Source: Dehalococcoidia bacterium (GTDB lineage: Bacteria > Chloroflexota > Dehalococcoidia > Lucifugimonadales > CATOSD01). From it: a stretch of DNA of 64,000 bases. Shown here one piece after another: positions 7,653-25,495 of the stretch. Each line of letters starts with the position of its first letter. Position 1 is the stretch's first letter. The notes under the pieces are model-generated. The model searched no databases. It was not told where the DNA came from and was given only the letters and a program-made list of their open reading frames with translations. The position numbers and the translations under genes are program-made. The stretch is from contig CBDBBO010000003.1 in the NCBI GenBank assembly GCA_965203135.1, positions 266 to 64,265 on the forward strand, written 5' to 3'.

Positions 7653-10241
7653 ATGAAGCGCTTGGTGGTTACGGCAGCCGTCAGGAAGGAGATGATTGAG
7701 ATAGACCAGTCGACTTTTCTTAGCCGCTGGCTCGCGGTCGTGACGGTTCTGGCCATCGCTGTCGTGCTGAGCGCCTGTAGCGACGACCCGGTTCCCACGC
7801 CGACCGATACGCCAGCCGCAACGCCTGCGACAGTGCATACGCCTACATCGACCGATTCGGCAACCCCCTCACCAATAACCACACCTACGCCAACCCCCGA
7901 ACAGACTCCCGCACCAACTCAGACCGCGACGCCGACTGCAACTCCCTCACCTGTTCCTACAGCCACACCTACGCTTACCCTCGAACCGACTCCCACGCCG
8001 ACTCCAACCCCTGAGCCGACGCCCACACCCACGCCCACTGTAGCGCCTACCACTTCCCTATCTGGTTCTTTCACCGATTCAACCGGTCGGAGGATCCGGT
8101 ATCGGGTCCACTATAATCAAGATTGGGACCTGAGCCAGCCGCGCGGGGCCGTAATCTTCTTTCATGGAAACAGCCGAGGCACCGAGGATGGCATGTTCTG
8201 GGGCCCAGACGAAGACGGGAGCGTACTTCCGCAGGGGCTGTTGTTTGTCCGGGTGGCGTCTCCAGAGTCCGGCGATGATTCTGACCATGCAGGCTCCGAG
8301 ACCAGTCTCTTTGGATACAGGCTGCACAGTGGTGGAATTAGGGGATGGCACGAAGCCGATTTTCGTCTGATCCACGAGCTATTGCAGAGCAACCTGGGAG
8401 GAAATGTCGCCCTTGACAAAGACAAGATCGTTTTTCAGGGAGGTTCTGACGGCACCGGTTTCTTGGCCAGATTCTTGGAGAGGTACTTCACCGTATATGG
8501 TGGCGGTTTTCACGCGTGGTGCGGCTATTTCTGGAACGGGTCCTATTCCCATCCTCCCCGAAAGGCCGCCTCGTGGGCGCCCACTGTTCCGTGGTCCAGG
8601 CACACAGCATCGGCAGTCGCACAACGGATGCGCGTATTCGTGGAAGCCACAACCGAAGACAAACTTCATGACGATGCCGTGGCAATGCGGGACTACTACC
8701 GGGACGTGCTGGGCCTGAACACACGATGGGACCTCGATGCTCCGGGAGGCCATTGTTGGATGGGCGCAACACCAAGACGTTCAATCGTGGAGTGGCTGTC
8801 CGAAACTCCTATCACGCAAGTTGCCGCAGGTACAGTCGCCGACCACGACGGCGACGGGCTGGCGAATGCGCTCGATCCGGACGACGACAATGACGGAGCG
8901 CCGGACATCATAGACGCCTTGCCCTTGGAACCGAGGGACTGGCTCGACACCGATTCAGACGGGACCGGAGACTTCGCCGACCGCGACGCCGACGGTGACG
9001 GCATCGAGAATGCGGCCGACCCGTTCTCCCTGGACCCGACAGAGTGGCGTGACAACGATGAAGACGGAATCGGCGACAACATCGATGTGGACGATGACAA
9101 CGACGGAGTTCCGGACAGCGCCGACCCGGATCCTCTCCGCGGCCCCCGCAACGACCAGCTGACGTTCAAATCTGTCAGTTCGGGGCAGCTTTACCTCACT
9201 TACCAACAGGTTCCATTTGCCCATGTTCACCGCAGCCAACCTGTGTCGATCAAGTACCCGGAGGCGCTCGGAAACCGCCAGTCCTGGCATTCCATCCGTT
9301 TGGGGGATGGGGCCAATCCGGTGTTCGAGATAATGATCGATTCCTACGAGCGCGATGAGTCGTGCGAAGACGTACTCCTCGCCAGGCTGTGCGACGCGCA
9401 GGCGCCCAACTTCTACTACTACGAGCGGTGGTACCACAAGATATACGTCGACAGGAACCGCAATGGGGACTTGACCGATGACGGACCGCCGCTGGTCATG
9501 GCTCGAAACGAGGAGGACCGGGACCATTCCCTTCCCTCGGCCCACGCCATCGTCAAGGTTCCCTATAGCACTGGCGAACTTCTGCCGTACGGGTTGCTCC
9601 TGTACCCGATGGGCGGACCCGAAGACATACGCCTGCGCTACGGGGGCGCAAGCGTGTGGATGGGTCTGGTGTCGGTTCCAGGCGCTGAACCGGTCCTGGT
9701 GGGAACGGTTGATATGAATGTCGACGGGGTGTTCAACACAGGGGAGTTGCGGTACAGCCCCTGGCCTCGCCAGGATGCCAGCATGTTGCAGGACTTTGTT
9801 TGTGTCGATAAGGATCGGGATGGCTGGCTGAGTGAGTGCGATCCTTACGTTGAACCGGAATCCGCCTTTCAACCCGTTTATGCGGACGAGCCGTTTACGT
9901 TAGACGGGCGAACCTACACGCTCGAAATCGCACCCACAGGTCACACGGTGCGTATCCGTGAAGCCTTCTCATCCACCACCCCTGAGCCGACGCCCACTGC
10001 TACTCCCCCACCCGTTGTCGAATCGCCATTGATTGCAACCTTCCTGGACACCCGGATACGCTGCCGCGCCTGGAACGCAGAAGCGAATGCACATAGACCC
10101 CGACACCATGCCGGTAGTCTCAACACGTGGCCCTCACGGAACGACGGCTGCTCGACGCCCAGGGCCGGACGCCGGTCATCGACTCGACGGAGCTGGCGGG
10201 CTGGTCTGCTTCGAGAAGCGGGAGTCCGCAAAGTTTCCTAA
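7653..10241 (+). CDS. Large secreted protein: Pro/Thr linker, alpha/beta-hydrolase-like domain, thrombospondin type-3 (Ca-binding) repeats, C-terminal beta-rich region
   Basis: N-terminal TM/signal LAVVTVLAIAVVLSAC. About 100 aa of PT-rich linker. AVIFFHGNS and QGGSDGTGF (GxSxG). DxDxDGxxDxxD arrays (DHDGDGLANALDPDDDNDGAPD..DTDSDGTGDFADRDADGDGIENAADP..DNDEDGIGDNIDVDDDNDGVPD). The last ~70 codons are Arg-rich and may be out of frame. Confidence 0.7.
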   Translation: MKRLVVTAAVRKEMIEIDQSTFLSRWLAVVTVLAIAVVLSACSDDPVPTPTDTPAATPATVHTPTSTDSATPSPITTPTPTPEQTPAPTQTATPTATPSPVPTATPTLTLEPTPTPTPTPEPTPTPTPTVAPTTSLSGSFTDSTGRRIRYRVHYNQDWDLSQPRGAVIFFHGNSRGTEDGMFWGPDEDGSVLPQGLLFVRVASPESGDDSDHAGSETSLFGYRLHSGGIRGWHEADFRLIHELLQSNLGGNVALDKDKIVFQGGSDGTGFLARFLERYFTVYGGGFHAWCGYFWNGSYSHPPRKAASWAPTVPWSRHTASAVAQRMRVFVEATTEDKLHDDAVAMRDYYRDVLGLNTRWDLDAPGGHCWMGATPRRSIVEWLSETPITQVAAGTVADHDGDGLANALDPDDDNDGAPDIIDALPLEPRDWLDTDSDGTGDFADRDADGDGIENAADPFSLDPTEWRDNDEDGIGDNIDVDDDNDGVPDSADPDPLRGPRNDQLTFKSVSSGQLYLTYQQVPFAHVHRSQPVSIKYPEALGNRQSWHSIRLGDGANPVFEIMIDSYERDESCEDVLLARLCDAQAPNFYYYERWYHKIYVDRNRNGDLTDDGPPLVMARNEEDRDHSLPSAHAIVKVPYSTGELLPYGLLLYPMGGPEDIRLRYGGASVWMGLVSVPGAEPVLVGTVDMNVDGVFNTGELRYSPWPRQDASMLQDFVCVDKDRDGWLSECDPYVEPESAFQPVYADEPFTLDGRTYTLEIAPTGHTVRIREAFSSTTPEPTPTATPPPVVESPLIATFLDTRIRCRAWNAEANAHRPRHHAGSLNTWPSRNDGCSTPRAGRRSSTRRSWRAGLLREAGVRKVS

Positions 10242-10928: not shown

Positions 10929-11666
10929 ATGCCCTCCAGGAACACTAACGGCGAGAAACACGGAGAGAAGCCCCTGGTGCTGGTCGTCGACGACGACCCC
11001 AACGTGGTCGCGCTGGCGCGCGGCTACCTGGAGCGGGACGGATACCGGGTGTCGGAGGCCGGCGACGGGCTCCGGGCGTTGGAGCTGGCCCGAAAGGAGC
11101 AGCCCTGCCTCGTGGTGCTGGATCTCATGCTCCCCGGCCTGGACGGGCTGGAGGTCTACCGTAGGCTGCAGGTGGAATCGATGGCGCCCGTCATCATGCT
11201 GACGGCGCGGGTGGAAGAGGCGGACCGGCTGGAGGGGCTGAACCTGGGGGCCGACGACTATATCACCAAGCCCTTCAGCCCCCGGGAACTGGCGGCCAGG
11301 GTCCGCGCCGTCCTGCGCCGCTCAGACCGGGAGAGCGCCGTTTCCGCATACCCGGAGCTTAGCTTCGACGGGATCAGGGTCAACCTGCGCACCCGGAAGG
11401 CGACGGTGGACGGCGCGGAGCTCGGCCTGACGCCAACGGAGCTCCGGCTGCTGACCCTCCTGCTCCAGGAACCCGGCAGAGTGTTCTCCCGCAACGACAT
11501 CATCGACAGGGCGCTCGGCGATGACTTCGACGGCTTCGACCGCGCCGTCGACACCCATGTGTCCGGTCTTCGCCGGAAGCTCGAAGCCGAAAGCCCGGGG
11601 AGCGCCGGGCACATCGAGACCGTGTATGGCGGCGGCTACCGGCTGCGTCATGGCGGGAGCGCCTGA
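10929..11666 (+). CDS. OmpR-family response regulator
   Basis: LVLVVDDDPN..VVLDLMLPGLDG..DDYITKPFSPREL receiver. Winged helix ..LTPTELRLLTLLL..VDTHVSGLRRKL..ETVYGGGYRL. Confidence 0.9.
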   Translation: MPSRNTNGEKHGEKPLVLVVDDDPNVVALARGYLERDGYRVSEAGDGLRALELARKEQPCLVVLDLMLPGLDGLEVYRRLQVESMAPVIMLTARVEEADRLEGLNLGADDYITKPFSPRELAARVRAVLRRSDRESAVSAYPELSFDGIRVNLRTRKATVDGAELGLTPTELRLLTLLLQEPGRVFSRNDIIDRALGDDFDGFDRAVDTHVSGLRRKLEAESPGSAGHIETVYGGGYRLRHGGSA

Positions 11667-11667
11667 C

Positions 11668-13107
11668 GTGCGTACTGGGATGCTGCACGACCTCGTTTCC
11701 AGCCTGCAATTCCGGCTGGTCGCGGGATTCGCGCTGACCATCGCCCTGACCCTCGCCGGGGCGGGAATCTTCATCAGCCTCGCCACCGAGACCCAGGTCG
11801 AACGGTTCGAGACCGATCAGGCCATGGCGCAGGCCGGGCGGGTCAGCGAGTTCATCTCCAATTACAGCATCGAGAACCCCGACCCCGCCGGACTAGGCCC
11901 CGATCTGCAATCGGTTGTCCAGCAGGCCGCCGACATCTCCGGGCTTCGCATAACCACCTACGACGCCCAGGGCAACGTCGTCGCCGACTCCAACCCTCCC
12001 TCTTCAATATCAAGCCCTCTGGAAGACCAATACGGGCCGAAGGAGGCGGAGTCCTTCTCCCTTCTATCCGACGGGGAGGTTGTGGGTTCCATCACCGCAT
12101 CCAGCGATTCTGGTCTTGAGGCGGAGCCTGGGCAGTTCGCCGTCAGCGACCCGGATGTTTCCCGCATAGCCCGCCACGTGGACCGCTACCTGCTGTGGGC
12201 CGGAATCGGCGTCGCGCTCCTGGGTACGGCGCTGGTGTGGATGCTCGCACGGCGCACGCTGGCCCCGGTGCGGAGGTTGGGAGCAACCGCCCGACAGTTG
12301 GGCCGGGGCGACCTGTCCCAACGGGCCGAGGTCGCCGGCCCCACCGAAATCCGGCATCTGGCCCACAGCTTCAACAGCATGGCCGCTGAGCTGGAAGAGG
12401 CCGAGGATCGCCGCCGCAGCCTCACCGCCGACATCGCCCACGAGCTGCGGACCCCTACCTCCAACATCCAGGGCTATATGGAGGCCATCAAGGACGGGGT
12501 GTTTCAGGCGACGCCGGAAACGGTGGACACCATCCACGAGCAGTCGCTCCTGCTGTCGCGGCTTGTCGACGACCTGCGCCTCCTCGCCCAGGTCGACGGC
12601 GGCGAGCTTCGGCTGCAACGGACGCAGACGCGCGTGGAAGAGTTGGTGCAGTCCTGCGTGGACGCCCTGCGGCCCCGGGCCGAAGCCAGCGGCGTGGCCC
12701 AGGACGTCGATGTGGCTGAAACCCTGCCGGAGCTGGACCTGGACCCGACCCGCATCTCTCAGGCGGTCGGCAACCTGCTGGACAACGCCGTCACCCACAC
12801 GCCGGAGGGCGGCAGGATAACGGTGTCTGCCCAAGCAAGTGGCAACGCTGTCGAAGTGCGGGTGGCGGACACCGGGCCGGGAATCGCTCCCGATGACCTG
12901 CCCCGCGTATTCGACCGCTTCTACCGCGCCGATCCCTCCCGTTCCCGCAGCACCGGCGGAAGCGGGCTTGGGCTAACCATAGCCCGGAGGCTCGTCGAGG
13001 CCCACGGCGGTTCCATCGAGGCCGAGAGCGTGGTGGGACAGGGCAGCCGGTTCACCATCCGCCTGCTGGCCGGACGGCGATCGAGTCGACGAAGGGCGTC
13101 CGGCTGA
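11668..13107 (+). CDS. Membrane sensor histidine kinase (TM-periplasmic-TM-HAMP-HisKA-HATPase)
   Basis: GTG sits 1 nt after the regulator stop. Two TM segments. H-box IAHELRTP. N/G boxes NLLDNAVTHTP, DTGPGI, GGSGLGLTIARRLVEAHGG. The ORF-track start 11521 overlaps the regulator and was not used. Confidence 0.85.
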   Translation: MRTGMLHDLVSSLQFRLVAGFALTIALTLAGAGIFISLATETQVERFETDQAMAQAGRVSEFISNYSIENPDPAGLGPDLQSVVQQAADISGLRITTYDAQGNVVADSNPPSSISSPLEDQYGPKEAESFSLLSDGEVVGSITASSDSGLEAEPGQFAVSDPDVSRIARHVDRYLLWAGIGVALLGTALVWMLARRTLAPVRRLGATARQLGRGDLSQRAEVAGPTEIRHLAHSFNSMAAELEEAEDRRRSLTADIAHELRTPTSNIQGYMEAIKDGVFQATPETVDTIHEQSLLLSRLVDDLRLLAQVDGGELRLQRTQTRVEELVQSCVDALRPRAEASGVAQDVDVAETLPELDLDPTRISQAVGNLLDNAVTHTPEGGRITVSAQASGNAVEVRVADTGPGIAPDDLPRVFDRFYRADPSRSRSTGGSGLGLTIARRLVEAHGGSIEAESVVGQGSRFTIRLLAGRRSSRRRASG

Positions 13108-13250: not shown

Positions 13251-15924
13251 CTAATCGTTGTCCCTCACGGTGACCTTCACGCTCGGCCCGATCATTCCAT
13301 CGTACACCGGGTCCGGGACGCAGTCCTCCGGGTTGTCCAGCTGGCCGCACGGCACGGCGTAGATTTCGTGGTGGATCAGGGCCGCTCCGTCCTCCGAATC
13401 GTCGTCCTCCGCCGCCTCCACGGTGATGGGGACGCCCACGTTCCAGGCAAAGGCCCAGCCGTCCCACCTCCCATCCTCGGGGAGGGCGTAGCCGCTGGGC
13501 AGCAGGATCATGCCCTGGTGCCCCGCCAGGGAGTCCGAGAGTGTGTCGTCCCCGTCCCAGATGAGGGCCACCCGCACCGGCCAGGCCGGGCTGGCGCCCA
13601 GCCTCACCCGGTAGCTGGCCGAGCCGCCCTCGTTCACCGTCAGGCTCGCCGGGGTCACGATGATCCGGCCCGTGGCCGCCCGCCTCGTTCATTGCCCGCA
13701 CCCGGTAGGGCAGGAGCTGGCCGGCAGCGGCCATGTCCACCCAGATGGTCCCACCCACGTCCCTCGCCACCGTCGTCCAGGGGCTGGCCGACCGCTGCAC
13801 CTCGTAGTGGCTCACCTTATGGCCGTTCACCGTCTCTACCGGCTGCCACATGATGATGTTCGCCAGCGGCGTTTCCACCACCCTCACGCCGGCCGGCGCG
13901 TCGGGGTGTCCCTCGCCGGTTCCAGCGTGGGACGCGATGGTCGCCCTGTTGTTGTCGGGGATGTGGTCATAGTACTCCGCGGTGTGCCAGGTGTTGCCGC
14001 CGGCTTCGCAGGCGGACTCACTGGACGCGGCCACGCCCACGCCGTCGCTGTCGATGCAGACCGTGTAGTCCCGGACGCTCTCGATGGTGGCGGTGACCGG
14101 GTCTCCTTCGGCGGTGATGGTCAGGGTCGCCGACGGGCTCCGGCCCGAATAGGGGGCTATTTCCGGGGACTCCAGCTGGCCGATGGCCCAGACGCCCTCG
14201 CAGAGGCCGGCCTGGCAGGCGCCCTGGGCGTAGCTCCCCCGGCTGGGGTCGGCCACTGCCCCCTCCGGCACTCCGGTCAGCGTCACCTCGGCGGGGGTGG
14301 CGTCCGGCCCGTTGTTCACCGCCTCGATGGTGTAGGCCACCTTCCCCCTTGCGACCGCCGGGCTGGCTCCGGCGTCCCGCACCTCCAGTTCCGCCATGGG
14401 ACCGACGTGGAAGGTATAGGTGACAGTGTCGGTGTATGCGGTGCCCGACGTGGAGGCCCCGAAGGTCAGTTGAACCTTATGCGTGCCCAGCGCGCTGAAC
14501 TCGGCAATTAGGGCATATGGTGCTGATGTCGTAGATTCGGGAAGATCGAGCGGCCCGAGGGAGGTTCTTGTATCCGCGTCCAGGAAGGCGCCTCCCGCCT
14601 CGGGGCCGCCAAGAAGCGTAAACGCGCCGGGCCTTTGCTTCGGCTCCACGTCGCTGATCGCATAGGTGTACTGGGAGTAGCCGCTGGGGATGAGTTCCAT
14701 CAGGAGCCCTACTCCCGGCATCGCGTAAGAGCGAAGGTAGTGGTTACTATGGGCGCTTGTGGTGCCGGTCCGCCATTTCCCGTCATGCCGTCCCTGGGGA
14801 TCCTTGACATGGATGATCACCGATTCCGGCTGCAAGTACATATTGCCCAAATCGGTCGACGTAGGCGGGGCAGCTGTATCGTCTCGTCTTTGTTTCAGCC
14901 TCAGGAGCCGGTCGTTGAGGCTGAATTCGGCGACAAGCTCCAGCGTATCGTCCGTGCTGCAGGGGTAGGTGGTGACGCCGATGCACGGAACATATTTGAA
15001 CAGGTCGATTTCGCCGCGGTCAATCACCTCCGGCGGCCCGTCTCCCAGGCACACCGTCGCGACGTCGTCAAAACTCCAATCCTCGGAGTCGGGAGGCGTT
15101 ACTTGGACGATCTCCGCCGTCAGGCATCGCCTCTCCAGGGGAGCGCTGCCGCTCAGGTTCACGGGCATACTCAGCGTCTTGGTCCTCCTGGCATCGTTCC
15201 TCACCGCAAGTAAATCGCCGGCGCGCCAGATGGCGGTATTCCCCGAAATCGTGGTGTTCGACAGATTGGACGAGGCAAAGGACAGTCCCGGCGAAAGGGT
15301 GACCTTCACCTGCACGCCAGTCTTATCCCAGGCAGGGGTGTCGAGACGGTTAATGAAAGTAATGAAAGTGGTGTTTTTGCACTGACCTTGAAGACGGCCC
15401 GCCCGTCCGGCGCCGGGCGCAGGTCGGCCACCTCGACCTGCAGGCCCACGCCATCTCGCGAAAAACCAATATTCCCGGTGACGGCAAAAAACCATCTCTC
15501 GGCACGATTGTTGTATTCAAATCCCCGCGTCTCTTGTGGTGAGGACGAGACGATTGAGGCGCGTGCCTGAAAGAACTCAATGGCGGGGTCCCCCAGTCTC
15601 CTGGCCGAACGAGAGGGTTGCCGACCTTCCAGCTCTGATTTGCGGGATAGTCCATTTCCCATTGGCGAAACCTCCCGTGTGGGGAGTAATTTCGTCCACT
15701 ACTGGCGGGTCACTCTCGAAATTGACCACCACGTCATTAACAACTACCTCAGAGTCATTTGTCACTACTACACGAATTTTGCCGGTCTTGCCCTCCTCAA
15801 ACTCCACAGCAAGGTCTATAGGCTGGCGGTAGGACTCGTCCTGGGCCTGGACCGGCGCTGCAGCAGAGGTATAGGCCACCGCCAGGGCGATGATTGCTAC
15901 GATGAAGGTCGTTGGTCTTTTCAT
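13251..15924 (-). pseudogene. Large surface protein (signal peptide, DUF11-like repeats, FN3, Calx-like domain) split over four reading frames
   Basis: Four frame segments. 15924-15577 carries a signal peptide (IIALAVAYTSAAAPVQA-QDE). About 15600-15385 reads WFFAVTGNIGFSRDGVGLQVEVADL. About 15385-13685 has good protein-like sequence ending HYEVQRSASPWT..LPYRVRAMNEAG. 13658-13251 reads IIVTPASLTVNEGGSASYRV... Sequence downstream of each junction in the old frame turns Arg/Gly-rich. Confidence 0.6.
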
Positions 15925-16154: not shown

Positions 16155-16532
16155 GGGCCTTCGAGCGTCTCCTTTGCGCCGATATTCATTCTTGGTCTGT
16201 TTCCGTTCGTTTCCTATCTTTGATATGTAATATTAATATATGGGCTGAGGCAGGGCCTCCAACGTAGCTCATATGCCCCGCCCCAACACCTCCCAGCTAT
16301 GTTCTACTTGATATGTAATCTCAATACAGGAGACAACGTACCACTTCGAGTACGATTACCGGGATGAACGGGTTCCACGGAACCCAGTGGTCAGAGTACC
16401 AGACGGCCTATCGCCTCCACGTGGTTTTTACCCCTTCTTTTGTGAAAAGCAGTGTATAATTCTGTGGAGACCCCCAGTGCATCCGGGGCCGGAAACGGGC
16501 TCCGCGACCCCCAACCCAGGAGGTAAGATTCG

Positions 16533-18899
16533 GTGCCTTCAGACCAACAGGACCGGGAGATCGATGCCCTGCGGGACCGGCTCTCGCGCCTGAGCGAGGC
16601 CAGCCTCCGCATCAACGAGAACCTGGACTTCGACGACCTGCTCCAGGGCGTGGTGGACGGCGCCCGCTCCCTCACCGGCGCCCGCTACGGCGCCCTGACC
16701 GTCTTCGGCGACGAGGGGGAGCTTCCCCACTTCATCGTCTCGGGGATGACCCCCCAGGAGCACCAGGGCTTCTGGGACATGCACGAAGGCATGCGGTTCT
16801 TCGAGTACGTGTCGGGCCAGGAGACGCCCCTGCGGGTGGCCGACTTCGGCGCTCACCTGGAGGCCCTGGGGATGCCCGACTTCCGTCCCCCCGTGCCCGT
16901 CACCTCGTTGCTGATTGCGCCCATCCGCCACCGGGGCGTGGCGACCGGCTCCATCTACCTGAGCGGGGGCGAGGAGGGCGGCGAGTTCACCCGGGAGGAC
17001 GAGGACTCCGTGGTGATGTTCGCCTCCCAGGCGGCGCTGGTCATCGCCAACGCCCGAACCCACCGGGAGGAGCGGCAGGCCCGGGCCGACCTGGAGACGC
17101 TGGTGAACACCTCGCCGGTGGGCGTGGTGGTCTTCGACGCCCATACCGGGCGTATGGCGTCCTTCAACCGGGAGGCGCTGCGCATCGTGGACGGCCTGCG
17201 GGACGACGACCAACCGCCGGAGGCCCTGCTGGAGGTGCTGACATGGGTGCGTTCCGACGGCCGGGAGGCCTCCCTGCGGGAGCTGCCGGCGGCCGAGGCT
17301 CTGAGGGCCGGGGAGACGGTGCGGGCCGAGGAGATCGTGCTGCGGGTCCCTGACGGGCGCAGCGTCAGCGTCCTGCTCAACGCCTCCCCCATCCACTCGG
17401 AGGACGGTCGGCTGGCGTCCTTCATCGTCACCCTGCAGGACATGACGCCCCTGGAGGAGCAGGAGCGGCTGCGGGCAGAGTTCCTGGCCATGGTGAGCCA
17501 CGAGCTGAGGACGCCCCTGGCGGCGGTCAAGGGCTCGATCACCACGCTGCTGGAGGGGGTGGGGGAGCTGGACCCCGCCGAGACGACCCAGTTCCACCGC
17601 ATCATCCGCGACCAGTCGGACCAGATGCGCTCTCTCATCGGCGACCTGCTGGACGTGGCCCGCATCGAGACGGGTTCCCTCCCGGTTGACCCCGAGCCCG
17701 CCAACCTGCGCTCGCTGGTGGATGAGGCAAGCAGCAGGTTGGTGGCCGGAGGCGCGGGGAACGCCCTGGAAGTGGAGCTGGCGGCGGACCTGCCGATGGT
17801 GCTGGCCGACCGGCTGCGCATCGTCCAGGTGCTGGGCAACCTGCTCTCCAACGCAGCCGGGTACTCCCCCGACGGGTCGCCCATCCTGGTGACCGCAGTG
17901 CGGGATGGCGTGCACGTCGCCGTCTCCGTCGCCGACCAGGGCCGGGGCATACCGGCGGAGCTTCTGCCGGGGCTGTTCCGCAAGTTCTCGCGGGCGTCGG
18001 GTGTCGACGGGTCGGGCCTGGGACTCGCGATCTGCAAGGGCATCGTGGAGGCCCACGGGGGCCGCATCTGGGCCGAGAGCGACGGCCCGGGCCTGGGGGC
18101 GCGGTTCACCTTCACCCTGCCGGCGGTGGAGGGCGCGACCTCCGCCCCCGCTCCTGCCTCTCCCGGCGCCCGTCCCGCAGCACGGGTCCGCGTCCTGGCC
18201 GTGGACGACGACCCCCAGGACCTGCGGTACGTCCGAGACGTCCTCGCCAGGGCGGGGTACGCGCCCATCGCCACCGGCGACCCCGCCGACGTGCCCCGCC
18301 TCCTATCAGAGGAGAAGCCCCACCTCGTCCTGCTGGACCTGGTGCTGCCGGGGAGCGACGGTATCGAGCTGATGAACCACATCCGCAAGTCGGCGGACGT
18401 GCCGGTCATATTCCTGTCGATGTACGGCCAGGACGAGACGGTCGCCAGGGCTCTGGACATGGGGGCGGTGGATTACCTGGTCAAGCCCTTCTCGCCGACG
18501 GAGCTTGCGGCGCGGATCAGGGCGGCGCTCAGGAAGCGGCTGGACCCCTTCCAGGCCGAGCCGTCGGGACCCTACGCGGTTGGAGGACTGGGCATCGACT
18601 ACGCGCTGCGCCGGGTGACGGTGGACGGAGAGCCGGTGGAGCTTACGGCCACGGAGTACGCGGTGCTCTACGAGCTTACGGTCCACGCCCCCAGGGTGCT
18701 GACCCACGGCGTGCTGCTCCAGCGGGTCTGGGGTCCGGAGCGCGTGGGCGACGCGTGGCTGGTGCGGGACGTGGTGAGGCGGCTGCGCCGCAAGCTGGGC
18801 GACGATGCGGACAGCCCCACGTACATCATCACCGAGCCCCGCGTCGGCTACCGGACGGCGGTGGGGGAGGCGGGGTCACAGAATCTGAAAGGTTCTTGA
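16533..18899 (+). CDS. Soluble GAF-PAS histidine kinase fused to a receiver and an OmpR-type winged-helix DNA-binding domain
   Basis: No TM segment. GAF-like N-terminus and a PAS-like region. H-box VSHELRTPL. NLLSNAAGYSP, DQGRGIP, GSGLGLAICKGIVEAHGG. Linker APAPASPGARP. REC domain RVLAVDDDPQ..LVLLDLVLPGSDG..DYLVKPFSPTEL. wHTH LTATEYAVLYEL..VRRLRRKLGDD..ITEPRVGYR. Confidence 0.85.
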   Translation: MPSDQQDREIDALRDRLSRLSEASLRINENLDFDDLLQGVVDGARSLTGARYGALTVFGDEGELPHFIVSGMTPQEHQGFWDMHEGMRFFEYVSGQETPLRVADFGAHLEALGMPDFRPPVPVTSLLIAPIRHRGVATGSIYLSGGEEGGEFTREDEDSVVMFASQAALVIANARTHREERQARADLETLVNTSPVGVVVFDAHTGRMASFNREALRIVDGLRDDDQPPEALLEVLTWVRSDGREASLRELPAAEALRAGETVRAEEIVLRVPDGRSVSVLLNASPIHSEDGRLASFIVTLQDMTPLEEQERLRAEFLAMVSHELRTPLAAVKGSITTLLEGVGELDPAETTQFHRIIRDQSDQMRSLIGDLLDVARIETGSLPVDPEPANLRSLVDEASSRLVAGGAGNALEVELAADLPMVLADRLRIVQVLGNLLSNAAGYSPDGSPILVTAVRDGVHVAVSVADQGRGIPAELLPGLFRKFSRASGVDGSGLGLAICKGIVEAHGGRIWAESDGPGLGARFTFTLPAVEGATSAPAPASPGARPAARVRVLAVDDDPQDLRYVRDVLARAGYAPIATGDPADVPRLLSEEKPHLVLLDLVLPGSDGIELMNHIRKSADVPVIFLSMYGQDETVARALDMGAVDYLVKPFSPTELAARIRAALRKRLDPFQAEPSGPYAVGGLGIDYALRRVTVDGEPVELTATEYAVLYELTVHAPRVLTHGVLLQRVWGPERVGDAWLVRDVVRRLRRKLGDDADSPTYIITEPRVGYRTAVGEAGSQNLKGS
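18767..18854 (+). repeat. Left arm of an 88-bp inverted repeat (inside the 3' end of the kinase-regulator gene)
   Basis: Its reverse complement recurs at 19043-19130 with one mismatch (gagccc/gaaccc). Confidence 0.9.
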
Positions 18900-19021: not shown

Positions 19022-19297
19022 TCAAGACTCTTTCTTGAGCATCCGGTAGCCGACGCGGGGTTCGGTGATGATGTACGTGGGGCTGTCCGCATCGTCGCCC
19101 AGCTTGCGGCGCAGCCGCCTCACCACGTCCAACGTCGCCTCGGTGTGCCCCGAATGTCTCCCCGCGAACCCCACCAACTCCGCATTGACTCTCCCAAGCC
19201 CCCTCAGCGCGTCGTTGGCCGCCGGTATGAACGCACCCTCAGGCCACCTCCCGGCCTCCTCGGCCTCGTCGTGGAAACTGCCCAGATACCTGAACAC
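19022..19297 (-). pseudogene. 3' remnant of a paralogous OmpR-type winged-helix regulator gene
   Basis: The C-terminal 29 codons (DVVRRLRRKLGDDADSPTYIITEPRVGYR) are nearly nt-identical to 18767-18854. There is no receiver domain. An IS element begins ~60 nt upstream. Confidence 0.55.
19043..19130 (-). repeat. Right arm of the 88-bp inverted repeat
   Basis: See 18767-18854. The arms are separated by 188 bp. Confidence 0.9.
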
Positions 19298-19357: not shown

Positions 19358-20656
19358 GACCTCAAAATCAATGGTTACCGAACGAGAGTTGTGACCTCAA
19401 AATTACGGTTACCGGCGGTGTTCCAGTTTAGGGGGTCTCCACGCCTCCACGCCAGGCCTTGCAGCTTCTCGATCTCTGAGTCGATCTGACGGCTCAGCCA
19501 CAGCGGGTTGAGCGACGCGTACAGCTTCTCGAACACCACCCGCCGAGCACCCACAAGCGCCCCACTCCCGAGCATCCGCCGGTACGGGGTCATACCCTCG
19601 TCGTGCATACGCACCACCCGATCACCCTGTCGACTCTTCCCAATGAGCCGACGCACCGGCTGGAAGAAGTTCGCCTGCAGCCGCGCCAGCGAGTACACCT
19701 GTTGCATCTGCCTGAAGGCCGCGGACGTAGAGTACCGGCTGTGTCCGGTCAGCCGACGCACCACCGCGCCGTTCTTCTGCTCGACGTGCGCGCTGTCGTT
19801 CTTGCGGTACGGCCTGCTCCTTGTGAACGTGATGCCGTTGTTCTCGCAGTAGGCGTACAGACCGCGGTTGATGAACTCAGAGCCGTTGTCCGAGTCCAGC
19901 CCCAGCAGAGGCACCGGCAACCGTCTCCGCATCCTGCGTATCGCAGCACCCACACGCTCCTGCGTCTTGCCCCACACAACGTCCATGTCCACCCATCCCG
20001 TAGCTACGTCCACCGCGGTCACGGTCCACAGGTAGAACCCCTCGGTAGTCGTTCCGCAGTGCGCAACCGTGTCCACCTCCACGAAGCCGGGCCGGGCGTC
20101 GTCCCACTCCCAGTAGGTCCGCACCGGGATGCGGTTCCGAAGCAGAGTCCCTGCCTTGGTAAGGCTGGTCGCTCTCTTCCTCACCGGCGCCTGGTGCGCA
20201 GCCAGCAACCGCTCAAGCGTCGCCGCGCTTGCCCGCCCGAGCCTGGTCTCAATCCAACAGTCCAACTCCAGTTCGCCGAACTCGGCCAGCCGCGACGCCA
20301 GCTCCCCCACGAACGGGTGCAGCCTTCTGGCGCCTATCCCGCCCGCCGCCTCGTGCACCACCCGGACCGCCTCGGCCACCTCCGGACCGTACTCGACCGG
20401 TCTGCCCACGCGCCCTCCCTTACGTTCTCGCCTCCGACCCGACAGGGCTCGTATCGCCGACTTCCTGTGATAGCCGGTCACGGCTTCCACCTCGTCCAGT
20501 ATCTTCCCCTTCTCCTTCTTACCCGCCTTCAGGTACCTCTCCATCTGCCGCTCCAGGTACTCTCGGACGCTCTTTTGGTTCACGGTTACCTCCAGCTTTT
20601 GGGTAACCGTAATTTTGAGGTACATTCTCCACTTCGGTAACCATAATTTTGATGTC
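19358..20656 (-). mobile_element. ~1.3-kb IS element with an rve/DDE transposase (family uncertain, IS481- or ISNCY-like)
   Basis: Each end carries two copies of a ~20-nt motif in inverted orientation. Left end: gacctcaaaatcaatggttacc (19358) and gacctcaaaattacggttacc (19393). Right end: ggtaaccgtaattttgaggt (20602) and ggtaaccataattttgatgtc (20636). Confidence 0.7.
19375..20625 (-). CDS. DDE (integrase-core, rve) transposase
   Basis: N-terminal HTH region. Catalytic candidates FVEVDTVAH, LGLDSDNGSEF, SAHVEQKNG. The start is uncertain (20658, 20625 or 20583). Confidence 0.8.
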   Translation of the reverse strand: MYLKITVTQKLEVTVNQKSVREYLERQMERYLKAGKKEKGKILDEVEAVTGYHRKSAIRALSGRRRERKGGRVGRPVEYGPEVAEAVRVVHEAAGGIGARRLHPFVGELASRLAEFGELELDCWIETRLGRASAATLERLLAAHQAPVRKRATSLTKAGTLLRNRIPVRTYWEWDDARPGFVEVDTVAHCGTTTEGFYLWTVTAVDVATGWVDMDVVWGKTQERVGAAIRRMRRRLPVPLLGLDSDNGSEFINRGLYAYCENNGITFTRSRPYRKNDSAHVEQKNGAVVRRLTGHSRYSTSAAFRQMQQVYSLARLQANFFQPVRRLIGKSRQGDRVVRMHDEGMTPYRRMLGSGALVGARRVVFEKLYASLNPLWLSRQIDSEIEKLQGLAWRRGDPLNWNTAGNRNFEVTTLVR

Positions 20657-20793
20657 ATGCGCCCCCTTGAAGTCTCCGCACACCCGTGCTATCCTCCGTT
20701 CTGCAATGGACTGACCCTGCGACTGGCGACCTCGGACACCGGGATTGGGACCTCTCGTCGGACTGTTCTATTTCTGTCGATTTTGCGGCTTTA

Positions 20794-23467: not shown

Positions 23468-25495
23468 ATGAGCACCACCACTGACGACGTGACAAGCCGA
23501 ACGCTGAGTCTGCCGGAAGAACTCATTCTCATGCTTCTCAACGATGAGAACGGGTACTTCCACCAGGTGCCCGGCTGGAACCTGAACTGCGCCGTCGCGG
23601 GGGCAGTGTTGGCCGAGCTTTCGCTGCGAAACCGCATAGATACCGACGCCGAATCCCTGTTCCTGGTGGACTTGACTCGTACGGGCGACCCTGTTCTCGA
23701 CCCCTTCCTGGACGAAATCATCTCCGAGCCTGACGAGCGCAACGCCCAGTACTGGATCGAACGCCTGGCTCCGCGCTCCGAGTCGGTGATCGACGAGACC
23801 CTGGAGCGCATGGTCTCGCTGAACATCCTCGACGCGCACGACGGGGATTTCTGGACTGTTTCCAACAAGGCCGGGACCTCGGATATGTTCCAGACGACCG
23901 CGGGCGACGAGGAAGGCGGATTCGTCAGAAACCGCATCAGAAGCGCTATCTTCGAGGACCGCATACCGGACCCCAGGGACATCATACTGATATGCCTCAT
24001 CAACACGTGCGACGTCTTCCGCTTCATCTTTCAGCTTGACGAAGTGGCGGAGGAGAGAATCCGCTTCTATTGCAACATCGACCTGCTTGGCCGCTCGATG
24101 GCCGCCGCCGTGTCTGAGAGCCTGACCGTCCCGTTTTTGCGGTACTCGGTCCTGGCCAAGAAGATACCGAACGTCCCACTGCGCAAGCTGCTGCTCAACC
24201 ACAACCTGCGCGCCGGCAATATCCCGGCGCTGTTCGCGGACCTTACCGACGAGTACGGTCCGGTGTTTCGCGTCAAACCGCCGTTTTCTCCGGCCATGAC
24301 CTTCCTTGCGGGCCCAGAGACGAACCATTGGGTGAACCGCAACGGACGAATGTACCTGCGGGCCAAGGACTACTTTTCGGACTTCGAGCAGGTCTACGGC
24401 GCCCACGGAGTGCTGCCCTCCCTGGACGGCGGCGACCACTTCCGGCTTCGCAAGTCCCTGCAGGCGTCGTATTCGCGCGGCCGGCTACTTGCGCACCTGG
24501 AAGGGGTCTACAGCCAGGCCCGTGCGTTCATGGCCGACTGGCAGGTGGGGCATTCCTACCAGGCCACCACCTTGTGCCGGCTTATGATCAACGCGCAGAT
24601 TTCTCCTATCAAGATAGGCGTCGATTCGCAGGACCTCATCGACGACCTCATCAAGTACAAGGAACGCGCCCTCACCACGCACGTCATGAGGGCGCTCCCC
24701 AAGTTCATGCTGAAGACGCCCGGGATGCGAAGGCGGGCGAAGAAGATCGATACGCTGGTGGAACGGGTGCAGAGCGTCCACACGCCCGCCCAGCGCGCCG
24801 GGCAGCCCCGCGACCTCGCGGACGACCTGCTGAGCCTGCATGGCAGCGACCCTCAGCTGGTGCCGGAGTCGAACCTGCGCTTCGCGCTGTCGGCCGCGCT
24901 CGTCGCCAGCGTCTATCTCGGAGACGCCTTCAGCTTCGCCCTCTACGCCATGGCGTCGCAGCCCGAACTCTACGAGAAACTCCAGGCGGAGGCCGATGGC
25001 CTGTTCGGAGACGGCGACCCGGGGCGCGACGAATTTACGCTGGAGGCCATAGACGTTACGCACCGATTCCTGATGGAATGCCTGCGAGTGTACCCCATCG
25101 TACCCATGTCTATACGCAACGTCATGAATTCGTGCGTGGTGGAGGGCTACGAGCTGCCGGTTGGCGAACGGCTTTTCATAGCTCAGACCGCTACGCACTA
25201 CATGGCAGAGTGTTTCCCCGAACCGCTCAAATTCGACGTCGACCGCTACCAGCACCCGCGCAACGAGCATCGCGGCCCCGGTTACGCCCCCTACGGTCTG
25301 GGAACTCACAGGTGTCTCGGCTCGCGCTGGATGGACCTCCAACTGGCCGTTAACGTGCTGATGGTCGCCCACTACTTCGACATCAGGGTGTCGCCGAGCG
25401 ACTACAAGCTACGATACAGCCCCATACCCTCGCAGAAGCCGAACAAGAAGCTCAGGTTCCGCATTGCCGAACGGAGGCGCGAGATACCGGCCTGA
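23468..25495 (+). CDS. GPP34 (GOLPH3/VPS74-like) domain fused to a cytochrome P450
   Basis: N-terminal ~210 aa: LSLPEELILMLLNDENGYF..AVAGAVLAELSL..I (bacterial GPP34 pattern). C-terminal ~460 aa: EXXR (ECLR), haem loop YGLGTHRCLGSRW. The I-helix reads LVASVYLGDAFSF and lacks the usual AGx(D/E)T(T/S). Confidence 0.75.
   Translation: MSTTTDDVTSRTLSLPEELILMLLNDENGYFHQVPGWNLNCAVAGAVLAELSLRNRIDTDAESLFLVDLTRTGDPVLDPFLDEIISEPDERNAQYWIERLAPRSESVIDETLERMVSLNILDAHDGDFWTVSNKAGTSDMFQTTAGDEEGGFVRNRIRSAIFEDRIPDPRDIILICLINTCDVFRFIFQLDEVAEERIRFYCNIDLLGRSMAAAVSESLTVPFLRYSVLAKKIPNVPLRKLLLNHNLRAGNIPALFADLTDEYGPVFRVKPPFSPAMTFLAGPETNHWVNRNGRMYLRAKDYFSDFEQVYGAHGVLPSLDGGDHFRLRKSLQASYSRGRLLAHLEGVYSQARAFMADWQVGHSYQATTLCRLMINAQISPIKIGVDSQDLIDDLIKYKERALTTHVMRALPKFMLKTPGMRRRAKKIDTLVERVQSVHTPAQRAGQPRDLADDLLSLHGSDPQLVPESNLRFALSAALVASVYLGDAFSFALYAMASQPELYEKLQAEADGLFGDGDPGRDEFTLEAIDVTHRFLMECLRVYPIVPMSIRNVMNSCVVEGYELPVGERLFIAQTATHYMAECFPEPLKFDVDRYQHPRNEHRGPGYAPYGLGTHRCLGSRWMDLQLAVNVLMVAHYFDIRVSPSDYKLRYSPIPSQKPNKKLRFRIAERRREIPA

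Follow-up and report, generated by a model that had tools for sequence, protein, structure and literature searches.

A soluble sensor kinase fused to an OmpR-type regulator in a Dehalococcoidia bacterium, and the multi-copy family to which it belongs

A gene at positions 16533-18899 (+) of a 64,000-nucleotide stretch of DNA from a Dehalococcoidia bacterium (assembly GCA_965203135.1, contig CBDBBO010000003.1; the whole stretch is called the window below) is confirmed to encode one soluble chain that unites a signal sensor, a histidine kinase, a receiver and an OmpR-type DNA-binding domain. This gene, here called Q, belongs to a large paralogous family, and its sensor domain was recently acquired from another family member by gene conversion. 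We consider it likely that Q is a functional single-chain two-component system, in which a cue would lead to phosphorylation of H323, then of D602, and to action of the winged helix at TGT[AG] repeats. The source genome, 3.49 Mb in 3 contigs, has a G+C content of 64%; the contig that holds the window is 334 kb long. Local G+C is about 70% in the DNA around the gene and 55% across the 1 kb upstream of it.

One soluble chain from sensor to DNA-binding domain

The open reading frame (ORF) begins with GTG, 9 nt after an AGGAGG sequence at 16518-16523, and continues without interruption for 788 amino acids. The first-pass annotation, made from the letters alone, had proposed that sensor, transmitter, receiver and output domains all lie in this single 788-residue product without transmembrane segments. 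The ORF listing, the Pfam scan and the hydropathy profile bear this out: one frame spans 16533-18899, every one of the six domains exceeds its Pfam gathering score, and the highest 19-residue Kyte-Doolittle mean is only 1.23, located within the HATPase fold. The scan of the whole protein therefore revealed no membrane segment and the protein is soluble; a signal peptide is lacking as well. The domains and the tether between the two halves are, all on the + strand:

Residues 32-171, 16626..17045 (+): GAF domain, Pfam 42.5 bits
Residues 186-304, 17088..17444 (+): PAS domain, Pfam 39.1 bits
Residues 314-381, 17472..17675 (+): HisKA/DHp domain, Pfam 66.7 bits; phospho-accepting histidine H323 in SHELRTP, codon 17499-17501
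Residues 426-531, 17808..18125 (+): HATPase_c domain, Pfam 92.3 bits; N440, G1 box D468-G472, G2 box G493-L498
Residues 532-553, 18126..18191 (+): Pro/Ala-rich flexible tether between kinase and receiver, with no stop/start pair
Residues 554-663, 18192..18521 (+): receiver (REC; Response_reg), Pfam 87.8 bits; acceptor D602, codon 18336-18338
Residues 699-774, 18627..18854 (+): OmpR/PhoB-type winged helix (wHTH; Trans_reg_C), Pfam 64.9 bits

The kinase half has the DHp H-box and the N, G1 and G2 boxes of class I (HisKA-type) sensor histidine kinases, namely SHELRTP with H323, N440, DQGRG at 468-472 and GSGLGL at 493-498. The regulator half has the full set of receiver residues of the OmpR/PhoB family (the acidic pair D558/D559, the acceptor D602 within LLDLVLPG, S629, Y648 and K651), followed by a Trans_reg_C winged helix. 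It departs from that family in not being a stand-alone regulator, since it is fused behind a complete kinase both here and in hundreds of relatives. H323, N440, G470/G472, G495/G497, D602 and K651 are invariant across 56 aligned relatives, and D558, D559, S629 and Y648 are conserved in at least 90% of them. No Hpt domain was found in the protein by Pfam, a separate HPt protein elsewhere in the genome not having been searched for.

Comparison with solved structures and curated families agrees with this division into two halves. In a PDB search, residues 550-783 matched MtrA (2gwr) at E 9e-38 in a full-length alignment; the REC-wHTH half aligned end to end with MtrA, KdpE, RegX3 and PrrA, and the kinase core with HK853. 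None of the NCBIfam models reached its equivalog cut-off. Sub-threshold matches were obtained to PnpS, WalK, PhoR and MtrB (partial, over residues ~170-540) and to the OmpR-type regulators MtrA, RpaB, PhoB and KdpE (residues 552-775), as well as partial matches to TorS, ArcB and other hybrid kinases. An AlphaFold2 model built on 56 relatives has a mean pLDDT of 79.8 with confidently folded domains. Continuous long helices link GAF to PAS (154-193) and PAS to DHp (305-341) in this model, and the kinase-receiver linker (534-550) is disordered, with pLDDT below 50.

The first-pass annotation had singled out the linker sequence APAPASPGARP, which lies in residues 532-553 within the disordered stretch, as the place where a stop codon between separate genes might have been lost, and had named a stop/start pair between HATPase and REC, in reads or orthologues, as the sign to look for. 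Orthologues showed no such pair; the full-length chains are uninterrupted at the junction. In a search of 5.8 billion clustered proteins, the best 120 matches listed were 779-833 aa long and 70-78% identical over 97-100% of the query; the GAF, HisKA, HATPase_c, REC and Trans_reg_C families were detected in all 120 and the PAS family in 119. Species-representative genomes, one genome per species, encode relatives at 539 loci or more, and the matches at the best 80 of these at least 539 loci all span residues ~3-780. Collinear similarity with the same six domains extends to more than 200 proteins or loci, which are 56-79% identical over 98-100% of the length. In related genomes, full-length matches read as one open frame through the kinase-REC boundary; a few stops were reported in whole-genome matches, in those that reach the last query residues, at positions not located. 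On the evidence of these sequences, a lost stop codon is excluded as the origin of the fusion, because the orthologues are uninterrupted at the junction. That the single ORF should be due to an error of assembly or sequencing, or to a recent mutation deleting a stop/start pair between a kinase and a regulator gene, is so improbable that it can be set aside: a single base change in the GC-rich linker could in principle suffice, and errors or decay do occur in this genome (the paralogue at C2:852297-854754 has a 1-nt insertion in REC), but the same uninterrupted junction is found at hundreds of independent loci in three phyla, it is in frame in the same-genome paralogues A, B and E described below, and neither a start codon nor a ribosome-binding site precedes REC in the sequence of the gene.

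A multi-copy family and an exchanged sensor domain

The family is large and multi-copy, and its main carriers are sponge-associated Dehalococcoidia. Between 1 and 10 full-length copies are present in each of the eight genomes sampled from the same genus, and the gene is patchily present elsewhere in the order. An even sample of the Chloroflexota contained it in 31 of 400 genomes; these fall in 8 genera out of 218 tallied. Judged by the titles of their records, carriers belong to the Dehalococcoidia (SAR202 and Tepidiformaceae among them), Caldilineaceae, Anaerolineae, Latescibacterota and Acidimicrobiia, with 'Candidatus Poriferisocius' and 'Ca. Aldehydirespirator' in this last group; several of these carrier names point to an association with sponge symbionts. 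In a quick, unrooted FastTree phylogeny of 82 sequences, five Latescibacterota rows and two separate Actinomycetota groups are nested within the Chloroflexota diversity. This suggests transfer between phyla, as a lead and not as proof.

The survey of phylogenetic distribution that the first-pass annotation had proposed is supplied by these counts of loci, genomes and phyla. Its remark that such a fusion is little described is right: we found no paper on an OmpR-type single-chain system in the full-text literature searched, though an earlier mention may exist. The architecture is nevertheless not rare, being that of a large multi-copy family in the sequence databases. Members carry generic names there, such as 'response regulator' or 'ATP-binding protein'.

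The genome of the window contains seven related loci:

Window 16533-18899 (+): paralogue Q, the gene under study
C1:1927950-1930391: paralogue A, protein identity to Q 77%
G000:C2:1061652-1064063: paralogue B, protein identity to Q 67%
G000:C1:1905950-1909504 (+): paralogue E, an open frame of 1184 codons with three GAF domains
G000:C2:852297-854754 (-): paralogue C, frame split by one extra G in REC (equivalent to window position 18239)
G000:C2:1050690-1052939 (-): paralogue D, GAF-PAS-kinase and winged helix kept, most of REC deleted
Window 19042-19130: 89 nt that repeat, in inverted orientation, the last part of Q's winged helix

The second and third GAF domains of paralogue E are near-identical, indicating a recent tandem duplication, and its first GAF keeps a DevS-like GHPPM histidine motif. 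All that is left of the receiver of paralogue D is LLDLMLPG...ADVPVI. The extra G of paralogue C lies in a run of only two G and represents either a true pseudogene or a sequencing error.

Conservation along the chain is uneven. Mean identity to Q across 55 aligned relatives is 80% in the HATPase, 76% in REC, 75% in HisKA, 71% in the winged helix and 70% in PAS; it falls to 49% in GAF and to 39% in the GAF core (residues 55-130). Besides the GAF core, the least conserved segment is the kinase-receiver tether, with a mean identity of 40%. The input module thus diversifies and the chassis is nearly constant.

Q itself bears the trace of a recent change of input module:

16567..17052 (+): gene-conversion tract of 486 nt, with 3 mismatches (99.4% DNA identity) to paralogue B, which lies on another contig

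The tract corresponds to residues 12-173 and takes in the whole GAF domain together with the last part of the N-terminal helix. In a sliding DNA comparison, Q and B are 99-100% identical from ~16599 to 17040 and 53-87% identical elsewhere. The comparison of Q with A and C gives the reverse picture, 82-97% outside the tract and 52-60% inside it. The direction of the exchange was sought with two same-genus loci (L100 and L101), one of which was not oriented and the other equidistant; it was given by L028, the nearest relative of B in another genome. L028 is 71% identical to B over the chassis and its GAF is 87% identical to the Q/B type, while the close relatives of Q's chassis (77-83% identical) all have GAF domains only 44-50% identical to that of Q. 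The donor is accordingly assigned to the B lineage, because L028 shares the Q/B type of GAF and the relatives of Q's chassis do not. A GAF of the B lineage was thus recently copied into an A-type gene by gene conversion, and Q is a recent chimera. Q and B now have the same sensor on chassis only 58% identical, in separate genomic contexts. The GAF swap, the tandem duplication of a GAF in paralogue E, the 89-nt copy of winged-helix sequence and the decayed paralogues C and D together show that the family is in active recombinational flux.

Upstream boxes and neighbouring genes

The regions upstream of family members usually contain an AT-rich stretch with repeated TTGTGA, TTGTAA or TGTGTA boxes, then a -10-like element (GGCATAAT, GCTATAAT) and a GC-rich leader of ~50-90 nt. 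In the upstream regions of up to 80 loci, pairs of TGT[AG] peak at a distance of 11 nt, with 20 observed against 1.3 expected from block shuffles, a count inflated by the close relatives in the set. Shoulders occur at 10-13 nt and 32-33 nt. The reverse-complement motif gave no distance peak in the same regions. Direction and period of the boxes fit tandem binding by winged helices of the OmpR/PhoB type. A structured 5' leader was also considered and rejected, RNAalifold on seven leaders yielding -4 kcal/mol and no compensatory pairs.

The features of the window that surround Q are the following:

10929-13107: canonical pair of an OmpR-type regulator and a HAMP kinase, upstream of the gene
13251..15924 (-): divergent gene for a secreted DUF11/fn3/Calx-like adhesin-type protein with a signal peptide, split over three frames
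16220..16326 (+): TTGATATGTAAT(N)T(N)AATA, present twice at a spacing of 88 bp in the AT-rich region between the divergent genes
16441..16466 (+): three TGT[AG] boxes (16441, 16453 and 16463) around TATAAT at 16455-16460, a candidate autoregulatory site
19022..19297 (-): convergent remnant ORF of 91 codons, covering only positions 41-77 of Trans_reg_C
19371..20657 (-): insertion sequence (IS) with an rve-type transposase and terminal inverted repeats at 19371-19413 and 20602-20644, adjoining the remnant

At the Q locus no -35 hexamer, canonical sigma-70 promoter or intrinsic terminator was found. The exact 12-nt repeat TTGATATGTAAT, at 16220 and 16308, has three other near-exact copies in the whole genome; as a common box of the family it was rejected, being absent upstream of the other paralogues and specific to the Q locus.

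The divergent adhesin-like gene lies in frames 15924-15577, ~15500-13700 and 13688-13251, at a local G+C of 55-60%, and is either a pseudogene or affected by assembly errors. On the other side of Q, the last 29 codons of the remnant ORF (19042-19130) repeat the end of the winged helix (18767-18855) in inverted orientation at 99% identity, and the rest of the remnant is unrelated. A truncated convergent paralogue or a conversion product may account for this 89-nt inverted repeat, which is a potential substrate for inversion.

The divergent arrangement recurs. Of the five other paralogues of this genome, four (A, B, C and E) are divergent from genes for signal-peptide proteins. The three partner proteins that were scanned contain fn3, cadherin-like or He_PIG/Ig domains, and several partners end in Gly-Gly-Leu or Gly-Gly-Val. 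Paralogue D faces an HlyD-like gene and a C39-peptidase ABC exporter and not adhesin-like genes. At about 22 of the 80 foreign loci, the adjoining upstream divergent ORF has a signal-peptide-like N-terminus, and about a dozen of these ORFs exceed 1000 aa. Clustering by sequence gave no neighbour family shared by more than 12 of the 80 foreign loci. The recurring partners have their class in common, that of large secreted repeat proteins, and do not form one protein family.

Several further observations concern these surroundings. The divergent genes for secreted proteins that face paralogues A, B and C are separated from them by regions with homopolymer runs of G15, C17 and G9 (G000:C1 ~1930700, C2 ~1064350 and C2 ~855000), which are candidates for slipped-strand switching. 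The regulator-kinase pair at 10929-13107 appears unrelated to Q. Upstream of it, another candidate eukaryote-like surface protein is encoded (7653-10241, +); it has 862 aa and contains a thrombospondin type 3 repeat. Downstream in the window, a 675-aa ORF (23468-25495, +) combines GPP34 (Golgi phosphoprotein 3-like) and cytochrome P450 domains and adjoins an amidohydrolase, a short-chain dehydrogenase and an MMPL transporter; its GPP34-like N-terminus is met again in other genomes close to members of the family, where it forms a flank cluster.

Proposed mechanism, alternatives and meaning

Domain content, intactness, conservation of the catalytic residues, family size, chimerism, synteny and box periodicity are observed, and a route from cue to DNA can be proposed from them. 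A cytoplasmic cue would be read by the N-terminal GAF, possibly together with PAS, and relayed by the long signalling helices to the HisKA/HATPase_c core, leading to phosphorylation of H323. The phosphoryl group would then pass to D602 of the receiver, which sits on a disordered tether of ~20 residues, either within the chain or across the DHp dimer. The phosphorylated OmpR/PhoB-type receiver is expected to free or re-orient the winged helix, which would bind TGT[AG] direct repeats ~11 bp apart in the intergenic region common with the divergent gene. Such binding would regulate the gene's own promoter and probably also the divergent genes for adhesin-like secreted proteins. For the phosphotransfer route, the DNA target, the regulon and the ligand, we infer by analogy with HisKA kinases and OmpR/PhoB regulators and with the Bacteroides precedent (PMC11253607). 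Two DNA-binding domains tethered to a dimeric kinase need a mechanism that excludes them from DNA when there is no signal (PMC11253607). The same need would apply to the protein of Q. MtrA, the closest solved regulator, has a closed interface between REC and the DNA-binding domain when inactive. A closed interface of this type is a plausible solution for the off state here.

Several points weigh against this reading of Q as a working system. The locus looks degraded, with the adhesin-like gene in three frames and the IS and winged-helix remnant just downstream. The TGT boxes of Q overlap the -10 element and one box unit of paralogue A is missing, and autoregulation at Q could be repression or impaired. 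The z-score of the box periodicity overstates independence, as the set includes close relatives. Finally, the winged helix is 71% conserved, so that paralogues may share DNA targets, and insulation in cis is an assumption.

This last point bears on an alternative that is plausible because chassis and boxes are so similar, though we consider it unlikely: signalling would not be insulated in cis, and DHp heterodimers or cross-phosphorylation between paralogues, with common DNA boxes, would make the 4-7 copies per genome one combinatorial network. The 71-80% mean identity of HisKA, HATPase, REC and winged helix, as against 39% for the GAF core, would permit such cross-talk, as would the similar TGT[AG] boxes upstream of different paralogues, and tethering permits relaxed kinase-receiver specificity in the Bacteroides hybrid systems (PMC11253607). 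However, the tether gives the cognate receiver a very high local concentration, and each paralogue keeps divergent partner genes of its own.

It is quite unlikely that the Q copy is a decaying or neutral relic, a recent recombinant amid insertion sequences and broken genes in a family that is otherwise functional. The split adhesin-like gene, the IS and the winged-helix remnant 140-470 nt downstream, and the one TGT box fewer than in paralogue A are what such a relic would be expected to show, and other paralogues have decayed, C through a frameshift and D through a deletion within REC. Yet Q retains a full-length ORF, every catalytic residue and a strong ribosome-binding site, and the apparent frameshifts of its neighbour could be assembly errors.

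What the GAF domain senses bears on a further alternative, in which it would be a haem-based sensor of O2/NO/CO or of redox state like DevS and DosT and the protein a one-chain gas sensor. When the GAF was searched alone, the only solved structures it matched were the GAF-A domains of DevS and DosT of M. tuberculosis (phmmer against the PDB; E 3e-18 to 7e-15; 2y79/2w3d); the tyrosine equivalent to DevS Y171 is kept (GSIYLS), and so is the GHPPM motif in the first GAF of paralogue E. The proximal haem histidine of DevS (YHPPM), however, aligns with Arg118 of Q (DFRPP). This column is mainly R/S/T/L/A in 56 relatives, with histidine not among its six commonest residues. Haem sensing was rejected because the histidine ligand is absent at this position, and we regard it as very unlikely; judged from the alignment, the ligand of the GAF is probably not haem.

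The reading of Q as a functional single-chain system invites comparison with known ones. The first-pass annotation had named the AraC-type hybrid two-component systems (HTCS) of Bacteroides as the well-known one-protein precedent, and these are indeed the closest described analogue, with kinase, receiver and DNA-binding output in one polypeptide. As in those of B. thetaiotaomicron, for example, a dimeric kinase carries the tethered DNA-binding domains, which must be kept from DNA without signal, and many paralogues per genome each adjoin their presumed target genes. HTCS lie in the membrane, sense sugars through a periplasmic domain and have an AraC-type output and a REC with an S/CHIP motif, which lies in the alpha3-beta4 loop and holds the DNA-binding domain (Gao, Wu and Stock 2024, PMC11253607). 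The protein of Q, in contrast, is soluble, with GAF/PAS input and an OmpR/PhoB winged-helix output; Pfam gave no AraC/HTH_18 match in it, the output being Trans_reg_C, and no SHIP/CHIP sequence occurs in the corresponding stretch (LMNHIRKSADVPVIFLS). Three of the four Bacteroides features tested, the membrane/periplasmic sensor, the AraC output and the S/CHIP motif, are thus absent. The carriers also belong to other phyla, and the partners are adhesin-like proteins and not polysaccharide utilisation loci. The protein is a variant of the hybrid two-component idea that stands outside the Bacteroides family, each of its halves being a bona fide member of its own superfamily.

Other relatives resemble one part or another of the chain. 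Full-length alignments link both the kinase core and the REC-wHTH half to MtrB-MtrA, PhoR-PhoB, KdpD-KdpE and WalK-WalR, and the direct-repeat boxes of ~11 bp and a promoter without -35 resemble the logic of the pho box, but these classical pairs are two genes and two proteins, mostly with a membrane kinase. DevS and DosT are likewise soluble kinases with GAF input, with a GAF-A similar at E 3e-18; unlike Q, DevS has a separate partner regulator, the NarL-type DevR, and its haem ligand is His149. Q has an arginine at that position, and its output is a fused OmpR-type domain. The hybrid kinases ArcB, TorS, BarA, RcsC and CckA also join a kinase and a C-terminal receiver in one chain, but their receivers are intermediaries that pass the phosphate to HPt and a separate regulator, whereas that of Q, of OmpR type and fused to an output domain, appears to be terminal.

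Two-component signalling is usually framed as a problem of partner-finding by separate kinases and regulators, a problem that single chains avoid. To our knowledge, only the AraC-type membrane systems of Bacteroides have been studied among such chains. The soluble OmpR-type version is abundant in sponge-associated Chloroflexota and common also to Acidimicrobiia and Latescibacterota. It would be a second, independent and compact solution, with sensor, switch and DNA binder in 790 residues; this compactness makes it attractive for biochemistry and for synthetic sensors, and the natural GAF swap shows that the input module is exchangeable in vivo.

A broader interpretation can be offered only tentatively, and we doubt it more than we believe it. 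The family would be a plug-and-play platform of sponge symbionts, with a near-invariant chassis, one type of DNA box and divergent adhesin-like modules, whose input is re-assigned by swaps of GAF cassettes through gene conversion and tandem duplication and whose units move between phyla; the Q locus would then be a fresh sensor swap, and Q and B would be two regulators with the same input and different chassis and targets. Taken alone the fusion is of moderate interest, to which the sensor swap, the pairing with adhesin-like genes and the spread over sponge-associated phyla add somewhat. The pairing suggests that these regulators control the cell surface of the symbionts, a question central to host-microbe recognition in sponges.

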